Assembly: GCA_963749705.1 (NCBI GenBank)
Contig: CAVVNQ010000004.1
Location: 128,001 to 192,000, forward strand
Reading direction: 5' to 3'
DNA: 64,000 bases
Origin: an uncultured Chloroflexia bacterium
GTDB taxonomy: Bacteria > Chloroflexota > Limnocylindria > Limnocylindrales > CSP1-4
Part shown: positions 2,683 to 15,453 of the stretch, one piece after another
Layout of the letters: each line of letters starts with the position of its first letter
How positions within the stretch are numbered: the first letter of the stretch is position 1
Notes under the pieces: generated by a model
The model's input: the letters and a program-made list of their open reading frames with translations, nothing else
Told to the model about the DNA's origin: nothing
Database searches by the model: none
Translations under genes and position numbers: made by a program

Positions 2683-3119
2683 CCCCGGACGACGGGGTCC
2701 CCCGGCGCGTCCGCCTTGCCGCCTACGCGTGGATCGAGGACGACGGGCGGGTGGTCCTGGTCCGTGTCGCCGCCGGGTCGCCGGGAGCCGGCGAGTGGAC
2801 GCTGCCCGGGGGCGGGCTCCGGTTCGGGGAGGACCCGGTCGACGGCGTCGTCCGCGAGGTGGCCGAGGAGACCGGCCTGACGGTCAGGGTCGGCAGCCTC
2901 GTCGCGGTCCGATCGACCGTGCTCGAGCCCGGGGAGACGCCGAGCGGCGACCGAATCCACGCGGTCGGGCTCGTGTACCGGGCGAGCGCCGACGACGGCG
3001 AGCTTCGCCACGAGGCTGACGGATCCACCGACATGGCGGCGTGGATCTCGTTCGACGAGCTCGATGCGCTCGCGTCGGCGCGGCTGCTGCGCTGGGCGCG
3101 GAGCGTGGTTGGTCGATGA
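2679..3119 (+). CDS. Nudix hydrolase
   Basis: Complete Nudix box GGLRFGEDPVDGVVREVAEETGL. ATGA overlap. Confidence 0.9.
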   Translation: MTPDDGVPRRVRLAAYAWIEDDGRVVLVRVAAGSPGAGEWTLPGGGLRFGEDPVDGVVREVAEETGLTVRVGSLVAVRSTVLEPGETPSGDRIHAVGLVYRASADDGELRHEADGSTDMAAWISFDELDALASARLLRWARSVVGR

Positions 3120-5011
3120 CCCGAACGACGCCCCCCTCCGCGCGCTACCCTGCCGCCATGTCGAACCTTCCGTTGTGGGAGCGCCGTTTCCGCGCGCCCG
3201 TCCTGTCCTTTCCGTCATGGTCAGCGGAGGCGCCGGACAGGATCGTGGTCGCCTCCACCGAGAGCGGGAGCTACCAGCTCCACACCTGGGACCGGGCCAC
3301 CGGCCGTCGCCGGCAGGTCACCCGGGACCCCGTCGGGGTCACCGAGGGCCGGCCGACCCGCGATGGCACGGGGGTGATCTGGTTCCGCGACGACACGGGA
3401 GATGAGACAGGTACCTTCGTGATCGCCCCGTTCGACGAGGACGTCGCGCCCGAGCCGTTGATCGAAGGGTTGCCCAGGGGCTGGTCCGAGGGCCTCGCGA
3501 TCGGCCGGACGCGCTCGGTCGCCGTGGTCAGCTCGATCGACGGGTTCTCGGTGTGGACCGCGGCCAACGGCTCGGCTGCGCGCCGGATCCACGCCCACCG
3601 GCAGCCGGTCCGGCTGGCCGGAGGCTGGGGCGTGATCGCGTCGGTGGACCGCAACGCCCTGTCGGCCGACGACGCGGTCGTCGTGCTCGAGATCATGGAG
3701 GACGGCGACGTCCTGCACCCGTCGCTGCGGGCGATCGACGCCGACACCGGCGAGACCGTCCGCGACCTGCGGGATCCGGGGCTCGAGCTCGCGGGGTTCG
3801 GCTTCTCGCCCGTGCCCGGCGACCGCCGCATCGCGATCACGCACGAGCGGACCGGCGATCGGCGGCCGGCCCTGTGGGACACGGACAGCGGTGAGGTCAT
3901 CGACCTCGACATCGACCTCGAGGGGCCGGTGGAGCCGGTCGGCTGGTGGCCGGATGGCTCGGCGCTCCTCCTGCAGCAGCTCGTCGAGGGCCGCCACCGC
4001 CTCCATCGCTACGACCTGGCCGGCGGACGCGTCGAGGCCCTCGACACGGTGCTGGGCTCGATCACCGCCGCGGCCGTCCGGCCCGACGGCTCCGTGTGGT
4101 ATCGCGTCCATGCCGGCGAGCATCCGGCGATGCTCCTGGCGGTGGGCTCGCCGACGCCGCTCCTGGTCGCCGATGGAGCCCCGGCGCCGGCGGGCCGGCC
4201 GTTCGAATCCTGGTGGTTCGCCAATCCCGACGGGCAGCAAGTGCACGGCTTCCTCGTCCACCCCGAGGGGCCCGGGCCGCACCCCGTGATGATGCGCGTG
4301 CACGGTGGCCCGCAATCCACCGACATGGACCGGTGGGCGCCCGACATCCAGGCACACGTGGACGCCGGCTTCCTGGTCGCGATGGTCAACTACCGTGGAT
4401 CCGAGGGGTTCGGCCGGCAATGGCGCGATGCGCTCACCGGCAACGTCGGCTTCCTCGAGCTCGAGGACGTCCTTGCCGGGCTCGACGACCTCGTCGCCCG
4501 GGGCCTCGCGGACCCGTCTCGAGCGGTGCTCGCCGGCTGGTCATGGGGCGGGTACATCACGCTGCTGGGCATGGGCCGCCACCCTGGGCGCTGGGTCGCC
4601 GGCATCGGCGGCGTGCCCGTGGCCGACTACATCGCGGCCTACGAGGACGAGGCTCCCACCCTGCAGGCGCTCGACCGTGCGCTGTTCGGCGGGTCGCCCG
4701 AGACGGTGCCGGACCTGTTCGTGGAGCGCAACCCGATCACGTACGCCGACGATGTCCGCGCACCGCTGCTGATCCTCGCCGGCGAGAACGACAGCCGCTG
4801 CCCGATCCGCCAGGTGTGGAACTACGTCGAGCGGCTGCGCGCGCGTGGCGTCGAGCCGCAGGTGTACACGTACGCGACGGGACATGCGTCGTACGACATC
4901 GAGGAACGGGTCCGCCAGACGCGGATCGTGCTCGAGTTCCTGGCCAGGACCGTGCCGGGCGTGCGGCGGCTCGACGGGCTGGACGCTCCGCTGGAGGCGG
5001 CGCCGGCGTAG
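3116..5011 (+). CDS. S9 (prolyl oligopeptidase/acylaminoacyl peptidase) family serine peptidase
   Basis: VHGGP, NYRGSEGFG, nucleophile GWSWGG, GENDSRC and GH triad residues. Start is 3116 (ATGA overlap) or 3158. Confidence 0.88.
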   Translation: MTRTTPPSARYPAAMSNLPLWERRFRAPVLSFPSWSAEAPDRIVVASTESGSYQLHTWDRATGRRRQVTRDPVGVTEGRPTRDGTGVIWFRDDTGDETGTFVIAPFDEDVAPEPLIEGLPRGWSEGLAIGRTRSVAVVSSIDGFSVWTAANGSAARRIHAHRQPVRLAGGWGVIASVDRNALSADDAVVVLEIMEDGDVLHPSLRAIDADTGETVRDLRDPGLELAGFGFSPVPGDRRIAITHERTGDRRPALWDTDSGEVIDLDIDLEGPVEPVGWWPDGSALLLQQLVEGRHRLHRYDLAGGRVEALDTVLGSITAAAVRPDGSVWYRVHAGEHPAMLLAVGSPTPLLVADGAPAPAGRPFESWWFANPDGQQVHGFLVHPEGPGPHPVMMRVHGGPQSTDMDRWAPDIQAHVDAGFLVAMVNYRGSEGFGRQWRDALTGNVGFLELEDVLAGLDDLVARGLADPSRAVLAGWSWGGYITLLGMGRHPGRWVAGIGGVPVADYIAAYEDEAPTLQALDRALFGGSPETVPDLFVERNPITYADDVRAPLLILAGENDSRCPIRQVWNYVERLRARGVEPQVYTYATGHASYDIEERVRQTRIVLEFLARTVPGVRRLDGLDAPLEAAPA

Positions 5012-6449: not shown

Positions 6450-8576
6450 TCAGGCGCCCGCGCGGTTCCTCGGCGCGGGCGGCAGGCGCCGCGCACCGTG
6501 GACCAGGAAGTGGACGAACCAGTCGCGGACCTGGACCAGGTTCTCGGCGCGGCGGAACGGCACCCCGCCGCGGGTCAGCTCGTGGGACTCCTCCGGGACG
6601 CGCATGAAGCGCACCGGCCGCCGCAGCGAGCGCAGGACGGTGAACAGGGCCTCGGCCTGGCCGATGGTCGTCCGGATGTCGCGCTCCGAGTGCTGGATCA
6701 GCAGCGGCGTGTGGATGTCGGGAGCCCGCGAGATCGGCGAGATCGAATCGAAGTACGCAGGGTCGTCCCATGGCCGGCGACCGAACTCGGTCCACGCCCA
6801 CTCGGCGTTCGAGATGTCGCCGGTCAGGAACAGCATCCGCATGTCCGCGACCGAGCGGCAGGTGACCGCGGCACGGAAGCGGTTGGTCCGGCCCACGATC
6901 CAGTTCGTGAGGTAGCCGCCGTAGGAGCCGCCCGTGATGCCCAGGCGATCCGGGTCGGCGAGGCCGTCGGCGATCGCCTGGTCGACGCCGGCGAGCACGT
7001 CCGCCATCGGGCCATCGCCCCAGTCGCCGAGGTTCGCGCGGTTGAAGGCCTCGCCGTATCCCTCCGACCCGCGCGGGTTGGCGGCGAGCACCGAGACGCC
7101 GGCACCCGCGAGGATCTGCCACTCGAGGGTCGGCGCCCAGCCGTAGAGCGTGTGGGGACCGCCGTGGATCTCGAGTGCGAGAGGCTGCCGGCCCGCTCCG
7201 GCGGGCAGCAGCCAGCCCTGGATCTCGCGTCCGTCGCTCGTCCAGCGGCGCTCGACCGGGGCGACCCAGTCGATCTCCCCCGCGAGCACGGTGTTGAGGT
7301 TGCTCAGCGGCCGCGCACCGGCCGCGTGACCGCCGCCATGCAGGTCGTAGACGACGACCTCGGGGAACGACACGGCCGTCGACCGCACGGCGACGATCGC
7401 GTCGCGGCCGGCGACCCGGCCATGATCCCAGCCCGACAGGTAGTGGTGATCCGTGGTCAGGCGCTCGGGTGCGGAACCACCGCCCACCGGGACGCGCCAT
7501 GCCTCGACGCTGCCCTCGATCGGCGCCGTGAACAGGACGTGCTCGCCATCGGCCGAGACGGCAAGCCGCGAGCGTTCACCCATCGCGACGTCGCTGTTCA
7601 TCCCGGCATCGGGCTTGAGCTCGCTCGTCGCCAGCAGGTCCTCGCCGCCGTTTCGGCCGGCATCCGCACCGTCGGCGGCGAACCGCCAGATCCCGGTCCG
7701 GTACTCGCCCCGCGGGAACCGGTCACCGAGCGCGACGATCGCCGACCCGTCGGGCAGCCATGCCGGCTCCCGGAACAGCGGGTCCGGGCCCCCGGCGATG
7801 GTGGTGACGGTCCCGGTGGCGACGTCGACCGCGTAGATCCCCGATCGGGACTCGACGTCCGGGTGCCGGCCGCGGTTGGCCGCGAACGCGATCCTGCTCC
7901 CATCGGGCGACCACGCCGGCGATTCGACCGACGTGCCTCCGACGACGAGCGGGCGTGCCGCTCCCGTTGCCACGTCGACCAGCCACAGGTGCGCGATGCG
8001 ATCGTCGACGAAACCGACCCCGTTGGCCATGTAGTGGAGGCGGTCGATGTACCGGAAGTCGGACCGCGGCACGGCCCCCGGCGCGGGCTTGGGTGGCCGG
8101 CGCCGACGCCGCTTCTCCTCGTCCATCGTCGCCCCGACCGAGTAGGTCAGGACCGCGATCATCCGGCCATCGGGCGACCACGAGAGCGCCTCGACACCGC
8201 GCGGCAGGTCCGTGAGCCGATGGGCCTCGCCGCCGTCGAGCGGGAGCAGGTGGACCTGGAAGCAGTCGTCTCGATCCCTCGGGTCCTTCGGTCGGCCCGG
8301 CTCATCTTCGGCGAACAGTCGCCGGTCGCTGACGAAGGCCAGCGTGGTCCCGTCGGGCGAGAAGCGCGCCTGGCTGTCGTTCCGGGCGCCGATCGTGAGC
8401 CGGCGAGCGTCGCCCGAGCCGTCGGCCGGGGCCGCCCAGATCGCCGACCGATACGCGTCACTGCCGGGCGCCGTCGTCCTGACGCTGAATGCGACCATCC
8501 GGCCGTCGGGCGACAGCCTGGGGTCGAATGGAATGCGGAGGCGGTACAGGTCCTCCGGGCGTGCGGGTCTGGGCAC
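6450..8576 (-). CDS. S9-family peptidase with beta-propeller (acylaminoacyl-peptidase-like)
   Basis: PD40-like SPDG repeats, IHGGP, NPRGSEGYG, GGSYGG, SERD and ESH. Confidence 0.9.
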   Translation of the reverse strand: MPRPARPEDLYRLRIPFDPRLSPDGRMVAFSVRTTAPGSDAYRSAIWAAPADGSGDARRLTIGARNDSQARFSPDGTTLAFVSDRRLFAEDEPGRPKDPRDRDDCFQVHLLPLDGGEAHRLTDLPRGVEALSWSPDGRMIAVLTYSVGATMDEEKRRRRRPPKPAPGAVPRSDFRYIDRLHYMANGVGFVDDRIAHLWLVDVATGAARPLVVGGTSVESPAWSPDGSRIAFAANRGRHPDVESRSGIYAVDVATGTVTTIAGGPDPLFREPAWLPDGSAIVALGDRFPRGEYRTGIWRFAADGADAGRNGGEDLLATSELKPDAGMNSDVAMGERSRLAVSADGEHVLFTAPIEGSVEAWRVPVGGGSAPERLTTDHHYLSGWDHGRVAGRDAIVAVRSTAVSFPEVVVYDLHGGGHAAGARPLSNLNTVLAGEIDWVAPVERRWTSDGREIQGWLLPAGAGRQPLALEIHGGPHTLYGWAPTLEWQILAGAGVSVLAANPRGSEGYGEAFNRANLGDWGDGPMADVLAGVDQAIADGLADPDRLGITGGSYGGYLTNWIVGRTNRFRAAVTCRSVADMRMLFLTGDISNAEWAWTEFGRRPWDDPAYFDSISPISRAPDIHTPLLIQHSERDIRTTIGQAEALFTVLRSLRRPVRFMRVPEESHELTRGGVPFRRAENLVQVRDWFVHFLVHGARRLPPAPRNRAGA

Positions 8577-8679
8577 GGGCCCCTCCGGGTGGGCGGGCGG
8601 CCGGCCCGCAGCGGGCGCCAGGGTGCGCCGGGGATTGCCGGCAGTCTAGCGCGGAGGGACGGGCTACCATCGGGGCTCG

Positions 8680-9453
8680 ATGGCCGAGCAGCTCTCTCTC
8701 CGGCTCGATCCGGCGCTCCCCCGCCCCGGTGACGTGGCCCCGATGTGGCCCACGGCCGTTGCCGATGCCTTCGACGCGCCTGACTTCCTGTTCGAGCCCA
8801 CCTGGGGCGGTCACCGGGTCCTGGCCTTCGTCGGGCCCGCGGACCGGGCGGGCGGCGGCGACGTACGGCTGGTCGATCCCAACGGGCTGGAGCTGGTCGA
8901 GCGGCTGCCGGAGCTCGCCGGGCTTGCCGTGCGCGTGGCGGCGCGCTCCGCGGTGCTCGACGGCGAGCTCGTCCTGGTCGACGGGCGAGGGCGCGCCGAC
9001 GACCAGGCGCTGCGCGAACGGCTGAGCGGGCGGCCGGGGCGTCCGGTCGCGTTCCTCGTGTTCGACATCCTCCACCTCGACGGCCGGTGGCTGCTCAACC
9101 AGCCGCTCGACAAGCGGCGCCAGCAGCTGCGCGCCGTCCTGCGACCGGGCGACGAGGTCGTGGTCGTGCCCGCGATCGTCGGCGAGGGCCGGGCGCTGTT
9201 CGACGCGGTCGTCGCCCAGGGGATCGCCGGGGTGCTGGCCCGGCGGCGGTCGAGCCCGTACCTGCCCGGCGTCCGGAGCACGCTGTGGCGGTCGATCCTC
9301 GCGACCCCCGGTGCGGTCGCGGGCGAGGGCGAAACCGAGGCCGAGGCGGGGATGACCGGCGACGGCGGGATCGACGGCCCGGCGCCCAGCGGCACCGCGC
9401 CCGTCCTCGCGCTGTTCCGACGCCTCCCGTTCGACGACGACCCGGACGGGTAA
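8680..9453 (+). CDS. ATP-dependent DNA ligase adenylation-domain homolog, predicted catalytically inactive
   Basis: Retains VLDGELV, FLVFDILHLDG and SPYLPG.RS..W. Motif I reads EPTWGGHR instead of EPKxDGxR. No OB domain. Confidence 0.75.
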   Translation: MAEQLSLRLDPALPRPGDVAPMWPTAVADAFDAPDFLFEPTWGGHRVLAFVGPADRAGGGDVRLVDPNGLELVERLPELAGLAVRVAARSAVLDGELVLVDGRGRADDQALRERLSGRPGRPVAFLVFDILHLDGRWLLNQPLDKRRQQLRAVLRPGDEVVVVPAIVGEGRALFDAVVAQGIAGVLARRRSSPYLPGVRSTLWRSILATPGAVAGEGETEAEAGMTGDGGIDGPAPSGTAPVLALFRRLPFDDDPDG

Positions 9454-9497: not shown

Positions 9498-10883
9498 CTA
9501 GCCGCGGACCGCCCGCGCGAACGCGCGGAGCCCCGGCGGCTGCCCGTACATCAGGACGCCGGCGCGGAACACGCGGATCGAGAACCACATCGCCAGCGGC
9601 ACCGTCAGCAGCAACAGCCCGATCGAGAGCGCCAGCTCCCAGGGCTCCACGCGCCCGACCGAGAGCCGGGACAGCATCACGAACGGGCTCCAGATCGGGA
9701 TGTAGGACGCGATCCGGATGATCGACGAGCTGCCGCCGCTCAGGGCGAGCACCGCGGGCAGGTACCCGGCGATCGCCGGGATCGACAGGGGCAGCGCGAT
9801 GACCTGGAGATCCTCCGCGCGACTGAGCAGCGAGCCGGCACCCGCGTACAGCGACGCATAGAGCGCGAACCCGAGCACGAAGTAGACGAGGAACGCCGCC
9901 AGGAGTCCGGGCGACAGCCCCGCCAGGGACGACGCGGACCCCGGGTCCTCGCCCAGCAGCGCGTTGCCGATCCTGCCCGACAGGAGCAGTGCCGCGAGCG
10001 CCGGCGCCAGCACGAGCGCCACCTGGGTCAACCCGGACAGGCCGATCCCGAGGATCTTGCCCAGCACCAGCTGCGGTGCGGTGCCCGCCGAGATGAGCAG
10101 CTCCATGACCCGGCTGGCCTTCTCGGCGACCACGCCCGCGGCGACCCACAGGCCGTAGAACACGAGGGTTAGGAACGACAGGACCACGAACACGATGCCC
10201 ACGATGCGGCGACTCGCGTACTCGGCGGTGTCGATGGTGTCGCCGCCACCGGCGCCGCCCGTGGCGCCCGGATCCACGACGTTGAACGTGGGTGCGACGA
10301 ACTGCCGGCTGCTGGGCGGCTGGGTCGCCGTCCAGTCGAGGATCCCAACGGCGAACGCCCCGATCTGCAGCAGCTGCGCGCGATCCTGGCTCAGCGCCCC
10401 CACGGTCAGCACCCGGAAGTCGAGGCCGCCATCCGGGCCGCGCGTGATCAGCACGGCACCCGCCAGCGATCCGTCCCGGACCTCGGCGGCCGCGGCGGCG
10501 GCGTCGTCCTGGCGCTCGAAGTCGAAGCGGCGGCTGGCCGCGGCGCCGGAGTCGAGCCGTGCGTTGAGGAAGCCGTCCATGACCGACACGGCCCGGTCCC
10601 CGAGCGTCTGCTCGTCGGCGACCACCGCGATCCGGGTCACCGTGACCTGGTCCACGAACCGGACCGCGAGCGGGATGAGCGCGATCATCACGGCCAGGCC
10701 TGCGAGCAGCACCGTCGAGAACACGAATGCCCGGGCCCGGACCCGCTCGGCGTACTCGCGCCGCGCGACCAGCCCGATGTTGCCGAGCCCGATGCTGCCG
10801 AGCCCGATGCTGCCGAGCCCGACGTCGGGCCGCACGTCGACGCGCGGATCCTGCTCGACGCGCGGATCCTGCTCGCCGCTCAT
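9498..10883 (-). CDS. ABC-2 type exporter permease (NatB/YhaP-like)
   Basis: LVARREY, VVAEKASRVMELLIS and LGKILG motifs; multiple TM segments. Confidence 0.85.
   Translation of the reverse strand: MSGEQDPRVEQDPRVDVRPDVGLGSIGLGSIGLGNIGLVARREYAERVRARAFVFSTVLLAGLAVMIALIPLAVRFVDQVTVTRIAVVADEQTLGDRAVSVMDGFLNARLDSGAAASRRFDFERQDDAAAAAAEVRDGSLAGAVLITRGPDGGLDFRVLTVGALSQDRAQLLQIGAFAVGILDWTATQPPSSRQFVAPTFNVVDPGATGGAGGGDTIDTAEYASRRIVGIVFVVLSFLTLVFYGLWVAAGVVAEKASRVMELLISAGTAPQLVLGKILGIGLSGLTQVALVLAPALAALLLSGRIGNALLGEDPGSASSLAGLSPGLLAAFLVYFVLGFALYASLYAGAGSLLSRAEDLQVIALPLSIPAIAGYLPAVLALSGGSSSIIRIASYIPIWSPFVMLSRLSVGRVEPWELALSIGLLLLTVPLAMWFSIRVFRAGVLMYGQPPGLRAFARAVRG
10771..10872. repeat. Adjacent in-frame tandem repeats (15 bp x3 and 18 bp x2) in the permease N-terminus
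   Basis: agcccgatg(c/t)tgccg x3 from 10771; tcgacgcgcggatcctgc x2 from 10837. Confidence 0.9.
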
Positions 10884-11851
10884 GCCGCGTCCCCGACACG
10901 AGACTCGGGCGAGTCGGGGTCACCGGGCGCGAGACGGCGCTCGTCCTCCGGGGGATGGCCGACATGGTCGATGAACACCTGCTCGAGGGTCGGATCGGCT
11001 GCCTCGAAGTGGAGCACGCGGGCGCCGGCGGCGACGGCCGCCAGCAGCACCGACTCCGGCTCGACCCCGGGATCGAGCTCCACCGACGAGCGATCCATCC
11101 CCGCCTGGATGATCCGCGTCCCGGGCACCGCGCTCAGCCACGGGAGGCGATGGTCGCCGGCAACCGAGATCCGGACCAGCCGCCGGCCGGTCGACCGGCG
11201 GACCTCGCGCACCGGACCCCCGACGACCATCCTGCCCCGGTCGACGATCGCGACCGCCTCGCACAGCGATTCCGCGACGTCCATCGAATGGGTCGAGAAC
11301 ACGACGGTCCGGCCGCGGTCGCGGAGCTCGAGGAACGCCTCGCGCAGGAGCATCACGTTGACCGGATCGAGCCCCGAGAACGGCTCGTCCATGAGCAGCA
11401 CCTGGGGATCGTGCAGGACCGCGGCGATGAACTGGACCTTCTGCTGGTTGCCCTTGGACAGCTGCTCGGCCTTGCGTCCGACGAGATCCTCCGCGCGGAA
11501 CCGCCGGAGCCACGCCAGCGCCTCCCGCCGGGCACGCTCGCGCGGCATCCCGTGGAGTCCGGCGAAGAACAGCAGCTGGTCGAGCACCCGCATCCGGGGG
11601 TACAGGCCGCGCTCCTCGGGGAGGTAGCCCCAGGTCGATCGCGGCAGCCGGGCGCTCGGCATCCCGCGCCACGTCACCTGCCCCGCGTCGGGCTCGAGCA
11701 CGCCGACCGCGATCCGCATGGTCGTCGTCTTGCCCGCGCCATTCGCCCCGAGGAATCCGAACACCTGGCCCGGGGCGACCTCGAACGTGAGGTCATCGAC
11801 GGCCACGACGGCTCCGAACCGCTTGGACAGGTGATCGACCACGAGCGCCAT
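10880..11851 (-). CDS. ABC exporter ATP-binding protein (YhaQ-like)
   Basis: GANGAGKTT, LSKGNQQK and LLMDEPFSGLD. ATG at 11851. Confidence 0.9.
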   Translation of the reverse strand: MALVVDHLSKRFGAVVAVDDLTFEVAPGQVFGFLGANGAGKTTTMRIAVGVLEPDAGQVTWRGMPSARLPRSTWGYLPEERGLYPRMRVLDQLLFFAGLHGMPRERARREALAWLRRFRAEDLVGRKAEQLSKGNQQKVQFIAAVLHDPQVLLMDEPFSGLDPVNVMLLREAFLELRDRGRTVVFSTHSMDVAESLCEAVAIVDRGRMVVGGPVREVRRSTGRRLVRISVAGDHRLPWLSAVPGTRIIQAGMDRSSVELDPGVEPESVLLAAVAAGARVLHFEAADPTLEQVFIDHVGHPPEDERRLAPGDPDSPESRVGDAA

Positions 11852-12006
11852 TCGCGCCCGAGCATACCGGGGCCCCGGCCCGAGGCCATTGCGGGATAGT
11901 CCGCATCGACGACACGATGAAGGTCCCGGTGGCGGCCCGGCCCCGCACGGTGGACACGGCCCGGTGCCGCACGGTGCCCGCGGCCCGGCGAGAGTACGAT
12001 CGGAGC

Positions 12007-12417
12007 GTGCAGGACCCGAGATCGACGACACCCGTCCGCATCGACGCGGACCGCACGGCCGGGACGCTCCGGCTGGAGTGGGCGGACGGGCACCAGACGG
12101 CATACGACGCCGCGACCCTGCGCTGGCTGTGCCCCTGCGCGTACTGTCGCGGCGAGGCGGGCCAGCCGGGCTGGCTCGACACCAACCCGACGCTCACGCC
12201 GGACCAGACGACGCTGGTCGATGTCGCCCTGGTGGGTTCCTATGCGGTCCAGGTGACCTGGGGCGACGGACACCACACGGGCTATCACACGTTCATGCTG
12301 CTGCGCGACCGCTGCCCGTGCGCCGAGTGCACGCGCGCCCGCGCCCAGCGTCACGAGCACGAGCCCCGGGCGACCGCTCAGGCGAGCGACCGCCACTGGC
12401 ATGGAGGAGACCAATGA
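12007..12417 (+). CDS. DUF971 / GBBH-like N-terminal domain protein
   Basis: LEWADGH, LRWLCPCAYC, VGSYAVQVTWGDGHHTG and a second CPCAEC. GTG start inferred. Confidence 0.8.
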   Translation: MQDPRSTTPVRIDADRTAGTLRLEWADGHQTAYDAATLRWLCPCAYCRGEAGQPGWLDTNPTLTPDQTTLVDVALVGSYAVQVTWGDGHHTGYHTFMLLRDRCPCAECTRARAQRHEHEPRATAQASDRHWHGGDQ

Positions 12418-13281: not shown

Positions 13282-15453
13282 ATGACCGCCGTTCGACCCG
13301 CTCCCGGACCCCGCGCCGCGTCCCGCGGCCGACGGCGGGCGGTGCACGACCATAAGGCCCCGATCCTCAACCGCGAGCTGTCGTGGATCGAGTTCAACGC
13401 CCGCGTGCTCCACGAGGCCCGCGACACGCGCAACCCGATCCTCGAGCGCGTCAAGTTCCTCGCGATCTTCGCGTCCAACCTCGACGAGTTCTTCCAGGTT
13501 CGCGTGTCCGGGTTGCGCCGGCAGGACCTGGCCGGCTCGCAGCACCTGTCCTCGGACGGCCTGACCCCGGCCAAGCAGCTGGACGCGATCCGGGCCCGGG
13601 TCCGGGACCTCGTCGCCGAGCATTCCCTGATCTTCGCCACGATCCGCGAGGAGCTCGCCGGCGAGGGCGTCGAGATCGTGGACTACGACGACGTTCCCGA
13701 GCACCACGACACGCTCCGGCGCCGGTTCCACGACGAGATCTTCCCGGTCCTGACGCCGCTCGCCGTGGATCCGGGACACCCGTTCCCGTACATCAGCACC
13801 CTGTCGCTCTCGATCGCGGTCGGGCTGCGGGACCCCGAGACGGGCGAGAAGCGGTTCGCGCGGGTCAAGATCCCGCCGATCCTGCCCCGCCTGTTCGAGG
13901 TCGAGCGCGACCGGTTCGTGCTCCTGGACCAGGTCATCGAGGCCAACCTCGACGAGCTGTTCCGGGGCATGGAGATCCTCGAGACGCACCTGTTCCGGGT
14001 CACCCGCGACGCGGACATCGCGATCGAGGAGGACGAGGCGGACGACCTGCTGCTCGCGATCGAGGAAGAGGTCCGGCGGCGGCGGTTCGGCGAGGCGGTC
14101 CGGCTCGAGGTCGAGCGCTCGATGCCGGAGCTGACGCGCAAGATCCTGATCAACGGCATCGGGCTGCGCGAGGACGACAGCTTCGAGGTCGCCGGGATGA
14201 TGGACCTCACGGCGCTGTGGCAGCTCGCCGAGCTCGACCGTCCCGACCTCAAGGCGCCGACCTTCACGCCGGTCGTGCCCCAGCGGCTGCTGCCGCCGGA
14301 CGAGGACGAGCCGGTCGACGTGTTCGCGCAGATGCGGGCCGGGGACCTGCTCCTCCATCACCCGTACGACTCGTTCACCGCCTCGGTCGAGCGGTTCATC
14401 TCGCAGGCCGCGGACGACCCCCTGGTGCTGACCATCAAGCAGACCCTGTACCGGACGTCGGGCGACTCGCCCATCGTCAAGGCGCTGATCCGCGCGGCGG
14501 AGCAGGGCAAGCAGGTCGTGGTCCTGGTCGAGATCAAGGCGCGCTTCGACGAGGAGGTCAACATCGTCTGGGCGCGCAAGCTTGAGCAGGCGGGCGCCCA
14601 CGTCGTGTACGGGCTGGTCGGCCTCAAGACCCACTGCAAGGTCGCGCTCGTCGTCCGGCGCGAGGGCAACGGGCTCCGGCGCTACGTCCACATCGGCACC
14701 GGCAACTACAACTCGCGGACGGCGCGCCTGTACGTGGATCTCGGCCTGCTCTCGTGCCGCGAGGAGCTGGGCGCGGACGTCACGGACCTGTTCAACGTGC
14801 TCACCGGGCTGTCACGCCAGAGCGTGTTCCGCCGCCTGCTCGTGGCGCCGATGACGCTCCGGTCGCGCTTCCTCGAGCTGGTCGAGCGGGAGGCGGCGAA
14901 TGCCCGTGCGGGCCAGCAGGCCCGGATCGTGATCAAGGTCAACTCGCTGGTCGACACCCAGGTGGTCGAGGCGCTGTACGAGGCGGCGCGGGCGGGCGTC
15001 GAGATCGAGTGCATCATCCGGGGCGCGTGCTGCCTGGTCCCCGGCGTCCCCGGTGCCTCCGAGCGGGCGCGCGCGCGCTCGATCATCGGCGAGTTCCTGG
15101 AGCACTCGCGGATCTGGATGTTCGCCAACGGCGGGCGCCCTGAGTGGTACATCGGGTCGGCGGACCTGATGGAGCGCAACCTCGATCGGCGGGTCGAGGT
15201 CGTGACCCCGGTCGAGGATCACGAGGCGCAGGTCCGGCTCGCGCGGATCATCGAGGTCATGCTGGCCGATGACCGCCGCTCGTGGCAGCTGCAGTCCGAC
15301 GGCCGATGGGTCCGGACCGAGGTGCTGACGTCGGCCGCGGGCGAGATCGACACGTTCGCCGTGCTCAAGCAGGATGCCGCGGCCGCCGCAGCCGCCGCGG
15401 ACGTGCCCAGACGGCCGCACTCGAACGTCGGATCGATGGACCCGCGCGCGTGA
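13282..15453 (+). CDS. ppk1: Polyphosphate kinase 1
   Basis: NRELSWIEFNARVL, SNLDEFFQVRV, HHPYDSF, IKQTLYRTSGDS, LKTHCK, GTGNYN and GSADLMERNLDRRVE. Confidence 0.97.
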   Translation: MTAVRPAPGPRAASRGRRRAVHDHKAPILNRELSWIEFNARVLHEARDTRNPILERVKFLAIFASNLDEFFQVRVSGLRRQDLAGSQHLSSDGLTPAKQLDAIRARVRDLVAEHSLIFATIREELAGEGVEIVDYDDVPEHHDTLRRRFHDEIFPVLTPLAVDPGHPFPYISTLSLSIAVGLRDPETGEKRFARVKIPPILPRLFEVERDRFVLLDQVIEANLDELFRGMEILETHLFRVTRDADIAIEEDEADDLLLAIEEEVRRRRFGEAVRLEVERSMPELTRKILINGIGLREDDSFEVAGMMDLTALWQLAELDRPDLKAPTFTPVVPQRLLPPDEDEPVDVFAQMRAGDLLLHHPYDSFTASVERFISQAADDPLVLTIKQTLYRTSGDSPIVKALIRAAEQGKQVVVLVEIKARFDEEVNIVWARKLEQAGAHVVYGLVGLKTHCKVALVVRREGNGLRRYVHIGTGNYNSRTARLYVDLGLLSCREELGADVTDLFNVLTGLSRQSVFRRLLVAPMTLRSRFLELVEREAANARAGQQARIVIKVNSLVDTQVVEALYEAARAGVEIECIIRGACCLVPGVPGASERARARSIIGEFLEHSRIWMFANGGRPEWYIGSADLMERNLDRRVEVVTPVEDHEAQVRLARIIEVMLADDRRSWQLQSDGRWVRTEVLTSAAGEIDTFAVLKQDAAAAAAAADVPRRPHSNVGSMDPRA

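Follow-up and report, generated by a model that had tools for sequence, protein, structure and literature searches.

A conserved lysine-less DNA-ligase paralogue of Limnocylindria as a candidate adaptor in DNA break repair

The usual teaching on bacterial non-homologous end joining (NHEJ) is that two proteins, Ku and LigD, make up the system. We describe here a protein of 257 aa, hereafter the pseudo-ligase, whose gene lies at 8680..9453 on the forward strand of a 64,000-nt window (the whole stretch of DNA analysed), taken from positions 128,001-192,000 of contig CAVVNQ010000004.1 of an uncultured Chloroflexia bacterium (Limnocylindria; Limnocylindrales; CSP1-4; GCA_963749705.1). Its nearest described structural counterpart is the ligase (LIG) domain of Mycobacterium tuberculosis LigD (1VS0, 6NHX), with which it has the nucleotidyltransferase (NTase) fold in common (root-mean-square deviation (rmsd) about 2.1-2.2 Å over about 194 columns), together with motifs III and IIIa and the SPY.PG.R segment. 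Unlike that domain, the pseudo-ligase is without the Lys and Asp of motif I, the Glu and Lys of motif IV, the lysines of motif V and the OB domain; it is also a stand-alone protein with two terminal peptides and falls outside the LigD LIG domains in a tree. We propose, at a probability of about 0.45, that it is a dead paralogue of the Ku-associated stand-alone NHEJ ligases and works in DNA break or nick repair without catalysis, as an adaptor or regulator.

Functionally, the nearest analogue of such a protein is ImuB, a Y-family polymerase that is dead as an enzyme and acts as a hub bound to the clamp, combining a clamp motif (QLPLWG) with a distinct region that binds partners (PMC10421592). 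Both follow one logic; however, the Y-family polymerase fold is unrelated to the ligase NTase, and clamp binding is experimental for ImuB whereas for the pseudo-ligase it is only weakly predicted. A further likeness is to Escherichia coli Hda, in which the hexapeptide 6-QLSLPL-11 enters the beta clamp's cleft via Leu7, Leu9, Pro10 and Leu11 (PMC5397184). The pseudo-ligase has a hexapeptide of the same type, in both proteins N-terminal and within a flexible segment, although Hda is an AAA+ regulator of DnaA without homology to the pseudo-ligase beyond this peptide.

Fold, catalytic motifs and terminal peptides

The gene is an intact open reading frame (ORF) whose start at 8680 is the first start codon past an upstream stop, and its product begins MAEQLSLRL. 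Its features are given below, with residue counts taken over 116 orthologous sequences, the window's own included, and with pN/pS as the ratio of nonsynonymous to synonymous differences pooled over orthologues.

8680..9453, + strand: pseudo-ligase gene, 257 aa plus stop (ORF and translation, PF01068 match)
8686..8709, + strand: N-terminal peptide EQLSLRLD, residues 3-10, a motif of the beta-clamp-binding type (conservation in 116 sequences)
8734..9309, + strand: NTase (adenylation-domain) fold, residues 19-210 (AlphaFold2 and Foldseek)
8791..8817, + strand: motif I remnant FEPTWGGHR, Lys to Thr and Asp to Gly (alignment to 1vs0)
8950..8976, + strand: motif III, AVLDGELVL, retained (D94 in 116/116, E96 in 111/116)
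9049..9084, + strand: motif IIIa, AFLVFDILHLDG, retained (F128 in 113/116, D129 in 116/116)
9220..9249, + strand: motif IV remnant GIAGVLARRR, Glu to Ala and Lys to Arg (A183 in 89/116, R188 in 116/116)
9283..9303, + strand: motif V remnant LWRSILA, both Lys lost (W203 in 116/116; position 205 F/S/L/Y; position 207 A/P/L)
9310..9390, + strand: variable acidic and Gly-rich linker, residues 211-237 (pN/pS 0.72; length varies in alignments)
9391..9438, + strand: C-terminal peptide GTAPVLALFRRLPFDD, residues 238-253, a second docking-type motif (conservation, pN/pS 0.15)

Profile searches placed the protein in the ATP-dependent ligase superfamily, and no curated NCBIfam model takes in these proteins above its cut-off. 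Residues 30-203 match Pfam PF01068 (DNA_ligase_A_M) at E 2.5e-17 and 63.7 bits, above the cut-off of 26.2, and none of the 12 NCBIfam ligase models reached its own cut-off, the best being the NHEJ ligase domain model TIGR02779 (113.7 bits against a cut-off of 227.75). Among solved structures, 1vs0 and 6nhx, both of the M. tuberculosis LigD ligase domain, match it best by sequence (E about 6e-19). An AlphaFold2 model built from 32 close homologues reached a predicted local distance difference test (pLDDT) score of 44.1, and the model used here was built from a 102-row alignment that includes active ligases, with a mean pLDDT of 86.7 and a predicted template modelling score (pTM) of 0.79. Averaged over blocks of ten residues, its pLDDT is at least 92 for residues 21-210, about 85 for residues 11-20 and about 60 for residues 1-10; the blocks over residues 211-257 average 44-59, with residues 212-232 below 50. 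In a Foldseek search of the PDB with this model, the top hit was the ligase domain of LigD (1vs0_B, E 9.5e-16, rmsd 2.2 Å over 194 columns, 32% identity), followed by archaeal and eukaryotic ATP-dependent ligases. The OB-fold domain is missing, as the TIGR02779 match spans profile positions 5-180 of 302 and residues 212-257 are modelled as disordered. In the model, the pseudo-ligase is thus an NTase domain held between two unstructured tails.

Aligned to 1vs0 and 6nhx, the catalytic segments EGKWDGYR, EGVIAKRR and WVKDK of LigD correspond to EPTWGGHR, AGVLARRR and WRSIL in the pseudo-ligase. Across the 116 orthologues, position 41, which holds the adenylated Lys in active enzymes, is never K (the seven commonest residues being W38 T23 S22 V10 A9 N4 I4), and position 43, the motif I Asp, is G in 113, A in 2 and D in 1; the flanking F38, P40, W42, G44 and R46 are invariant. 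Lysine is scarce throughout: each protein contains 0-4 of them (median 1), no alignment column has K in more than 42 of 116 sequences, and only the columns at positions 118 and 145 reach 10. Because no Lys column is conserved and K never occurs at position 41, a lysyl-AMP intermediate is, on the alignment, impossible for the whole orthologue family, and what its sequences predict is an NTase fold without any residue for ligation steps 1-3. The organism's own genome encodes three further ligases that match PF01068 far more strongly; motif I reads KxDG in two of them and, in the third, K-x-D-G with Tyr as x.

These results agree with the original prediction, which was made from the sequence alone and described a catalytically dead ligase homologue: the intact 257-aa ORF starting MAEQLSLRL, the scaffold segments VLDGELV, FLVFDILHLDG and SPYLPGVRS, the replaced motifs I (TWGG), IV (AG..R) and V (WRSIL) and the missing OB domain are all present as it stated. 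It had also named retention of KxDG in orthologues as the sign of strain-specific decay, and with Lys kept in 0/116 no such decay is seen.

Proteins that bind the beta clamp commonly do so through a short peptide with the consensus QL[SD]LF or QLxLxL. The N-terminal peptide of the orthologues follows [DE]-Q-L-[STNA]-[LFM]-x-[LF], with Q4 and L5 each in 113/116 (the three misses being sequences with a doubtful start call), L93/F11/M10 at position 7 and L109/F5 at position 9. Position 8 is Pro in 11 sequences, and the exact Hda string QLSLPL occurs, for example, in L063, L064 and L066. The peptide is therefore conserved among orthologues and lies in a flexible segment (pLDDT about 60; pN/pS 0.18 for residues 1-18). 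The original prediction had named lack of conservation of the QLSLRL motif as a refutation; QLSLxL is instead kept at the very start of the protein, where the chain is disordered. Among the stand-alone relatives found within the 150 best representatives, the motif is present in 24/32 lysine-less proteins vs 0/17 KxDG proteins, by a regular expression that excludes the active P0177 cluster (N-terminus DQLSIELES). Canonical clamp motifs are carried by Y-family proteins of the same genome, QLAMF in DinB and QLPLF in an ImuB-like protein. The latter, a second Y-family homologue encoded outside the window (G000:C18:13397-13795, + strand, locus L188), has only a weak match to IMS (44.9 bits), its motif is internal (QQLPLF), and from its sequence it may be another dead-enzyme clamp adaptor.

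We co-folded residues 1-36 (31-row alignment) with the organism's own DnaN (372 aa, 24-row Chloroflexota alignment) and obtained interface scores (ipSAE) of 0.60, 0.55 and 0.69 in three runs, compared with 0.01 for the best of three controls. The result was graded as weak support, on a mark that is reached by 58/80 solved complexes and 2/110 mismatched pairs, and at a score of 0.60 or below by 7/80 complexes and both passing mismatches. At least 70% of contacts are common to the runs, and the partner pLDDT was 44 or higher. Binding of the N-terminal peptide to the clamp is plausible on this model.

The original prediction made no mention of the family's association with Ku and end joining, nor of the C-terminal peptide, which follows the consensus P-V-L-A-L-[IFL]-x-R-L-P-[LF]-[DE]. 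Of 116 sequences, P241 is found in 97, V242 in 103, L243 in 108, A244 in 106, R248 in 109, L249 in 113, P250 in 114 and [LF]251 in 113.

Orthologues and selection

A word-indexed search returned more than 120 proteins of 245-299 aa with 70-84% identity, whose named sources are Candidatus Limnocylindrales or Chloroflexi metagenome-assembled genomes (MAGs) and which are publicly annotated as 'ATP-dependent DNA ligase', 'bifunctional NHEJ protein LigD' or 'hypothetical protein'. In 32 close homologues, both TWGGHR and the N-terminal QL motif are invariant. The gene was found in 23/24 other genomes of the genus, and a scan of species-representative genomes added 80 further loci, nearly all with Chloroflexota-type titles. 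Altogether we extracted 119 loci, which gave 115 further distinct sequences and, with the window's protein, the 116 used throughout. The reading frame is intact in nearly all 119 loci, the exceptions being four aberrant C-termini (L056, L058, L066 and L105), which are possible frameshifts, and one frame cut by a contig end. Matches in genus g36 that were listed with stops inside proved to be intact 247-aa genes, the stops being their natural stop codons.

Several loci stand apart from this pattern. Genome G146 holds two WGG-type copies (C6:51-827 and C7:450085-450864), one of them at a contig edge with a TGA inside the match, and the pair may reflect either a duplication or an assembly artefact. 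Loci L083, L093, L123 and L126 lie on contigs titled Deferrimicrobiaceae, Methylomirabilota, Dormiibacterota and Patescibacteria, respectively; their proteins are 53-61% identical to the window's, as in Chloroflexota-titled loci, and the odd titles are probably binning or labelling errors rather than signs of transfer.

Pairwise Nei-Gojobori estimates over 235 pairs above 78% identity gave a median omega (dN/dS, nonsynonymous over synonymous rate) of 0.167 with a range of 0.058-0.324, values drawn from pairs that are not independent and with a dS affected by high G+C codon bias. The contrast between regions of the protein is independent of both limits: pooled pN/pS is 0.20 in the core (residues 19-210), 0.18 in residues 1-18 and 0.15 in residues 238-253, vs 0.72 in the linker (residues 211-237). 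Both disordered tails are as constrained as the NTase core, and the gene is maintained by purifying selection on the core and on both tails. The original prediction had favoured a selected gene over a decaying one, and the intact frames, the median omega of 0.167 and the 116 orthologues bear it out. The combination expected of a pseudoenzyme adaptor with ImuB-like logic is accordingly found here, the catalytic residues being lost while fold and gene are under purifying selection.

Association with Ku, ancestry and gene surroundings

Profile matches across 201 genomes of the class were sharply bimodal: full-length ones of at least 284 bits occurred only in family f1 (44 genomes, including the window's own), and the remaining matches were LigD-like, at no more than 180 bits and over positions 12-214. 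Among the matches with a start close to the N-terminus, we found a second dead type that is more degenerate than the window's WGG type: its motif I reads EPWWPG, the motif III Glu is Thr and the motif IIIa Phe is Ala, and no Pfam family matches it at E 1e-5 or better. This WWPG type carries both tails, [DE]QLxLx[ILV] at the N-terminus and RPxLALIxRLPL at the C-terminus. In 21/22 loci its gene comes directly downstream of Ku, with both on the same strand (the gap in G074 is 8 nt), and in genus g34 the order is an operon of Ku, the WWPG-type pseudo-ligase and LigD. In two g34 loci (L191 in G114 and L192 in G084), the NTase domain of the WWPG protein is interrupted midway by a Gly/Ala/Pro-rich insertion, the N-terminal motif is without its Gln (PLPLEF) and the gene's stop overlaps the start region of LigD. 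In family f3, 61 of the 66 genomes (four of the 66, G159, G168, G193 and G227, being unpublished) contain the WWPG type at E 1e-63 or better, and three more contain it in part.

In families f26 and f27, the slot after Ku, occupied elsewhere by the dead WWPG type, holds an active ligase of 354-363 aa that has ELKWDG, EGIVAKRR and an OB domain and ends in RPRLMVLHSLPF. This arrangement was seen in 6/6 loci, a set picked by N-terminal matches and not at random:

L159:3873-5951 (G234) and L160-L164: Ku then the active tail-bearing ligase, same strand, with LigD nearby on the other strand (f26/f27)

These stand-alone, LigC-type ligases are the closest active relatives of the pseudo-ligase in the tree (with weak support, 80), and their C-tail, RPRLMVLHSLPF, compares with PVLALFRRLPF. 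The C-terminal motif is thus common to the pseudo-ligase, the Ku-linked WWPG type and the Ku-linked active ligases. Unlike the pseudo-ligase, which is not adjacent to Ku, the active proteins keep KWDG, EGIVAK, WLK and the OB domain.

We compared the distribution of the dead types with that of Ku, which is found in 187/201 genomes of the class. The clearest comparison is within f1, for 60 genomes besides the window's own (none unpublished; tables combined by hand). All 56/56 Ku-positive genomes have one dead ligase (43 WGG, 13 WWPG, never both), the 13 with WWPG being exactly those without the WGG type, and the dead ligase is found in 0/4 of the Ku-negative genomes (G099, G111, G180 and G241; 90-95% complete). 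For two of these Ku-negative cases, in genera g37 and g40, congeners hold both genes, unlinked. The reduced genomes of f2 (1.0-1.4 Mb) have Ku in 0/7 and a dead ligase in 0/7. This co-occurrence is suggestive of a dead-ligase presence that tracks Ku. In the window's own genome, Ku and LigD (a 971-aa frame) lie together on another contig than the pseudo-ligase.

For ancestry, 71 NTase domains (187 columns) were placed in a quick maximum-likelihood tree, under LG+C20+F+G4 by posterior mean site frequency (PMSF), with support from the Shimodaira-Hasegawa-like approximate likelihood-ratio test (SH-aLRT). All 35 rows of the WGG type fall together in a single clade (94). The two WWPG rows go with P0183, a dead protein that has an OB domain (91), and the Ku-linked active tail-bearing ligases join P0177 and P0198 (86); the WGG, WWPG and tail-bearing active groups together make up one clade with weak support (80), apart from the LigD LIG domains. 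The LIG domain of the genome's own LigD falls in a separate clade with support 99. It is the nearest in-genome paralogue (44% identity), but its place in another clade does not support the pseudo-ligase as its recent duplicate. Because the tree groups it with the tail-bearing ligases and apart from LigD, the most fitting view of the pseudo-ligase is that it derives from a lineage of stand-alone ligases with tails and is not a recent LigD copy. Across the dead types, catalysis would have been lost either once or twice.

Other stand-alone proteins of the LigD/LigC type, of 263-378 aa, are also without the motif I Lys. These are P0182, P0183, P0178, P0191, P0220, P0227, P0240 and P0258, in which motif I reads, in the same order, DWGG, LYDG, RWDG, DWDG, RWGG, DWDG, RWDG and LWGG. 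An OB domain is shown in P0182 and P0183, the latter starting MPQLSLF and coming from a Dehalococcoidia MAG. Lysine-less ligase paralogues may accordingly be wider than the WGG and WWPG family.

The remaining features of the locus lie upstream of the gene and on either side of it:

8665..8670, + strand: TACCAT, a -10-like hexamer 9 nt before the ATG, conserved in orthologue upstream regions
6450-8576, - strand: S9 peptidase, divergent neighbour of the pseudo-ligase gene (Pfam)
9498-12103, - strand: ABC-2 permease/ATPase pair, convergent neighbour (Pfam)

Of 98 distinct upstream regions from orthologues, 84 have TACCAT starting between -20 and -10 (in 59 the start is at -15), and a Shine-Dalgarno-like word is present in only 5/98, the window's gene being without one. 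Since TACCAT lies near the start codon and Shine-Dalgarno-like words are rare, the pseudo-ligase mRNA is probably leaderless. The conserved spacing of TACCAT also supports the annotated start and, with it, the terminal place of the QL motif. The genome contains 15 copies of the word CTACCATCG, often at 5-8 nt ahead of an ATG or GTG. We considered and rejected it as the operator of a regulon, given that about 17 occurrences are expected by a base-composition estimate made by hand; it looks like an ordinary -10 element, a general promoter form of the lineage. A second conserved intergenic word, AGTCTAGC, lies at 8643-8650, with a spacing to TACCAT that varies among orthologues. Read in reverse complement it gives TAGACT, which agrees with TAnnnT and is a candidate -10 element of the divergent S9 peptidase gene.

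The neighbourhood of the gene is kept among orthologues, with the ABC permease in 75/80 loci and the S9 peptidase in 60/80. This peptidase (6450-8576, - strand) is one of two S9-family prolyl-oligopeptidase paralogues that flank the locus, the other being at 3041-5011 (+ strand), together with polyphosphate kinase 1 at 13282-15453 (+ strand). These flanks are ordinary genes, and their arrangement is kept in many orthologous loci. PADLOC, run for membership of a defence system, returned no match.

Proposed role, alternatives and implications

We infer from the conservation of the two tails and of the dead core how an adaptor of this kind might work. The N-terminal peptide would dock on the beta clamp, and the C-terminal PVLAL(F/I)xRLP(L/F) would dock on a second partner common to the Ku-linked active ligases, with Ku as the first candidate and LigD as the second. 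The dead NTase core would then supply a surface for binding DNA ends or proteins. A bolder form of the proposal, which we regard as possible though doubtful, is that end joining in Limnocylindria has three parts, with the dead ligase as an obligatory subunit that bridges Ku and LigD at the break to the beta clamp via its two peptides.

Several observations weigh against an adaptor tied to both Ku and the clamp. No Ku gene lies within 8 kb of the WGG-type gene (0/80 loci); the two are on different contigs or 0.17-1.7 Mb apart, and the conserved neighbours of the pseudo-ligase gene are an S9 peptidase and an ABC-2 transporter. The genomes behind the co-occurrence are related and incomplete (69-99% complete), and hence not independent, and the node that joins the three tail-bearing groups has a support of only 80 from a quick search. 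Some WWPG members are without the Gln of the N-terminal motif (PLPLEF, RLPLEF), and the Ku-linked active ligases have only a loose N-terminal motif (PTLLDV). Clamp recruitment, as originally predicted, gained weak support from the DnaN co-fold (0.60 vs 0.01 for the best control), but the score comes without a contact list, and likeness to solved clamp-peptide complexes, remembered by the predictor, may explain the pass.

Some of these points would suit an NHEJ accessory factor that works without the clamp, both tails binding repair proteins (Ku, LigD or a PrimPol) and the likeness to a clamp motif being coincidental. The sister types sit in operons with Ku and LigD, the N-terminal motif decays to PLPLEF or RLPLEF exactly in the genus where the gene lies between Ku and LigD, and the co-fold with DnaN is only weak; yet Q4 and L5 are kept in 113/116 WGG-type sequences, some orthologues match the Hda peptide QLSLPL exactly, and the co-fold score still stands at 0.60 against 0.01, and we judge this account unlikely. 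Less probable again is a decoy or brake, in which the dead domain would compete with tail-bearing active ligases or the LigD LIG domain for docking sites or DNA ends and so limit ligation. It draws on the C-tail that is common to the active Ku-linked ligases, on the dead type's place in their genomic slot in sister lineages and on the three better-matching ligases that the genome retains, but no tail-bearing active ligase was seen as a competitor in the dead-type lineages, and a positive partner would account just as well for the strict co-occurrence with Ku. The near-invariance of D94/E96, F128/D129, R46 and R188 in the WGG type would suit residual ligand binding or another catalysis, such as sensing of a nucleotide or of adenylated DNA through the retained pocket. 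We consider this improbable: the nucleophile position is unconserved, no Lys is conserved anywhere, and the retained residues may be purely structural. Moreover, in the WWPG type the motif III Glu and the motif IIIa Phe are gone as well, yet both tails are kept, which argues that the tails, and not nucleotide binding, would be the conserved function.

The synteny with the divergent S9 peptidase and the convergent ABC-2 exporter (60/80 and 75/80 loci, respectively) could be read as a non-repair function tied to these neighbours. However, they lie on the opposite strand and thus form no operon with the pseudo-ligase gene, synteny within one lineage is explained by descent, the homologous WWPG type resides in Ku operons and the presence of the gene tracks Ku, all of which make this reading very improbable. 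Loss of the catalytic residues and of the OB domain would be expected of a decaying pseudogene or an annotation artefact; this we set aside almost entirely, as the pseudogene reading is ruled out by the intact frames in nearly all 119 loci, the conserved motifs, an omega of 0.17 and the conserved -10 element upstream. Weighed against these alternatives, a non-enzymatic adaptor or regulator in end joining, or in related repair of breaks or nicks, is the reading that we prefer.

In the full-text collection searched, from which subscription journals are largely missing, no paper described a bacterial DNA-ligase paralogue that is inactive or lysine-less, nor a link between NHEJ and the clamp; in PMC10140301, short ligase-domain proteins in metagenomes are treated as fragments or as LigC. 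We rate the pseudo-ligase as a putative pseudoenzyme adaptor within the LigD/LigC superfamily. The occurrence of a conserved lysine-less ligase domain in sister Ku operons, together with its tracking of Ku, points to a third, non-catalytic component of bacterial NHEJ. If the bridging form of the proposal is true, the pseudo-ligase would be the first adaptor of its kind and would for the first time tie bacterial NHEJ directly to the replication clamp. It would also extend the principle of ImuB, a dead enzyme acting as a clamp-tethered hub, to the ligase superfamily. The names that these proteins currently carry ('ATP-dependent DNA ligase', LigD) misstate the repair capacity of abundant soil and freshwater Chloroflexota.

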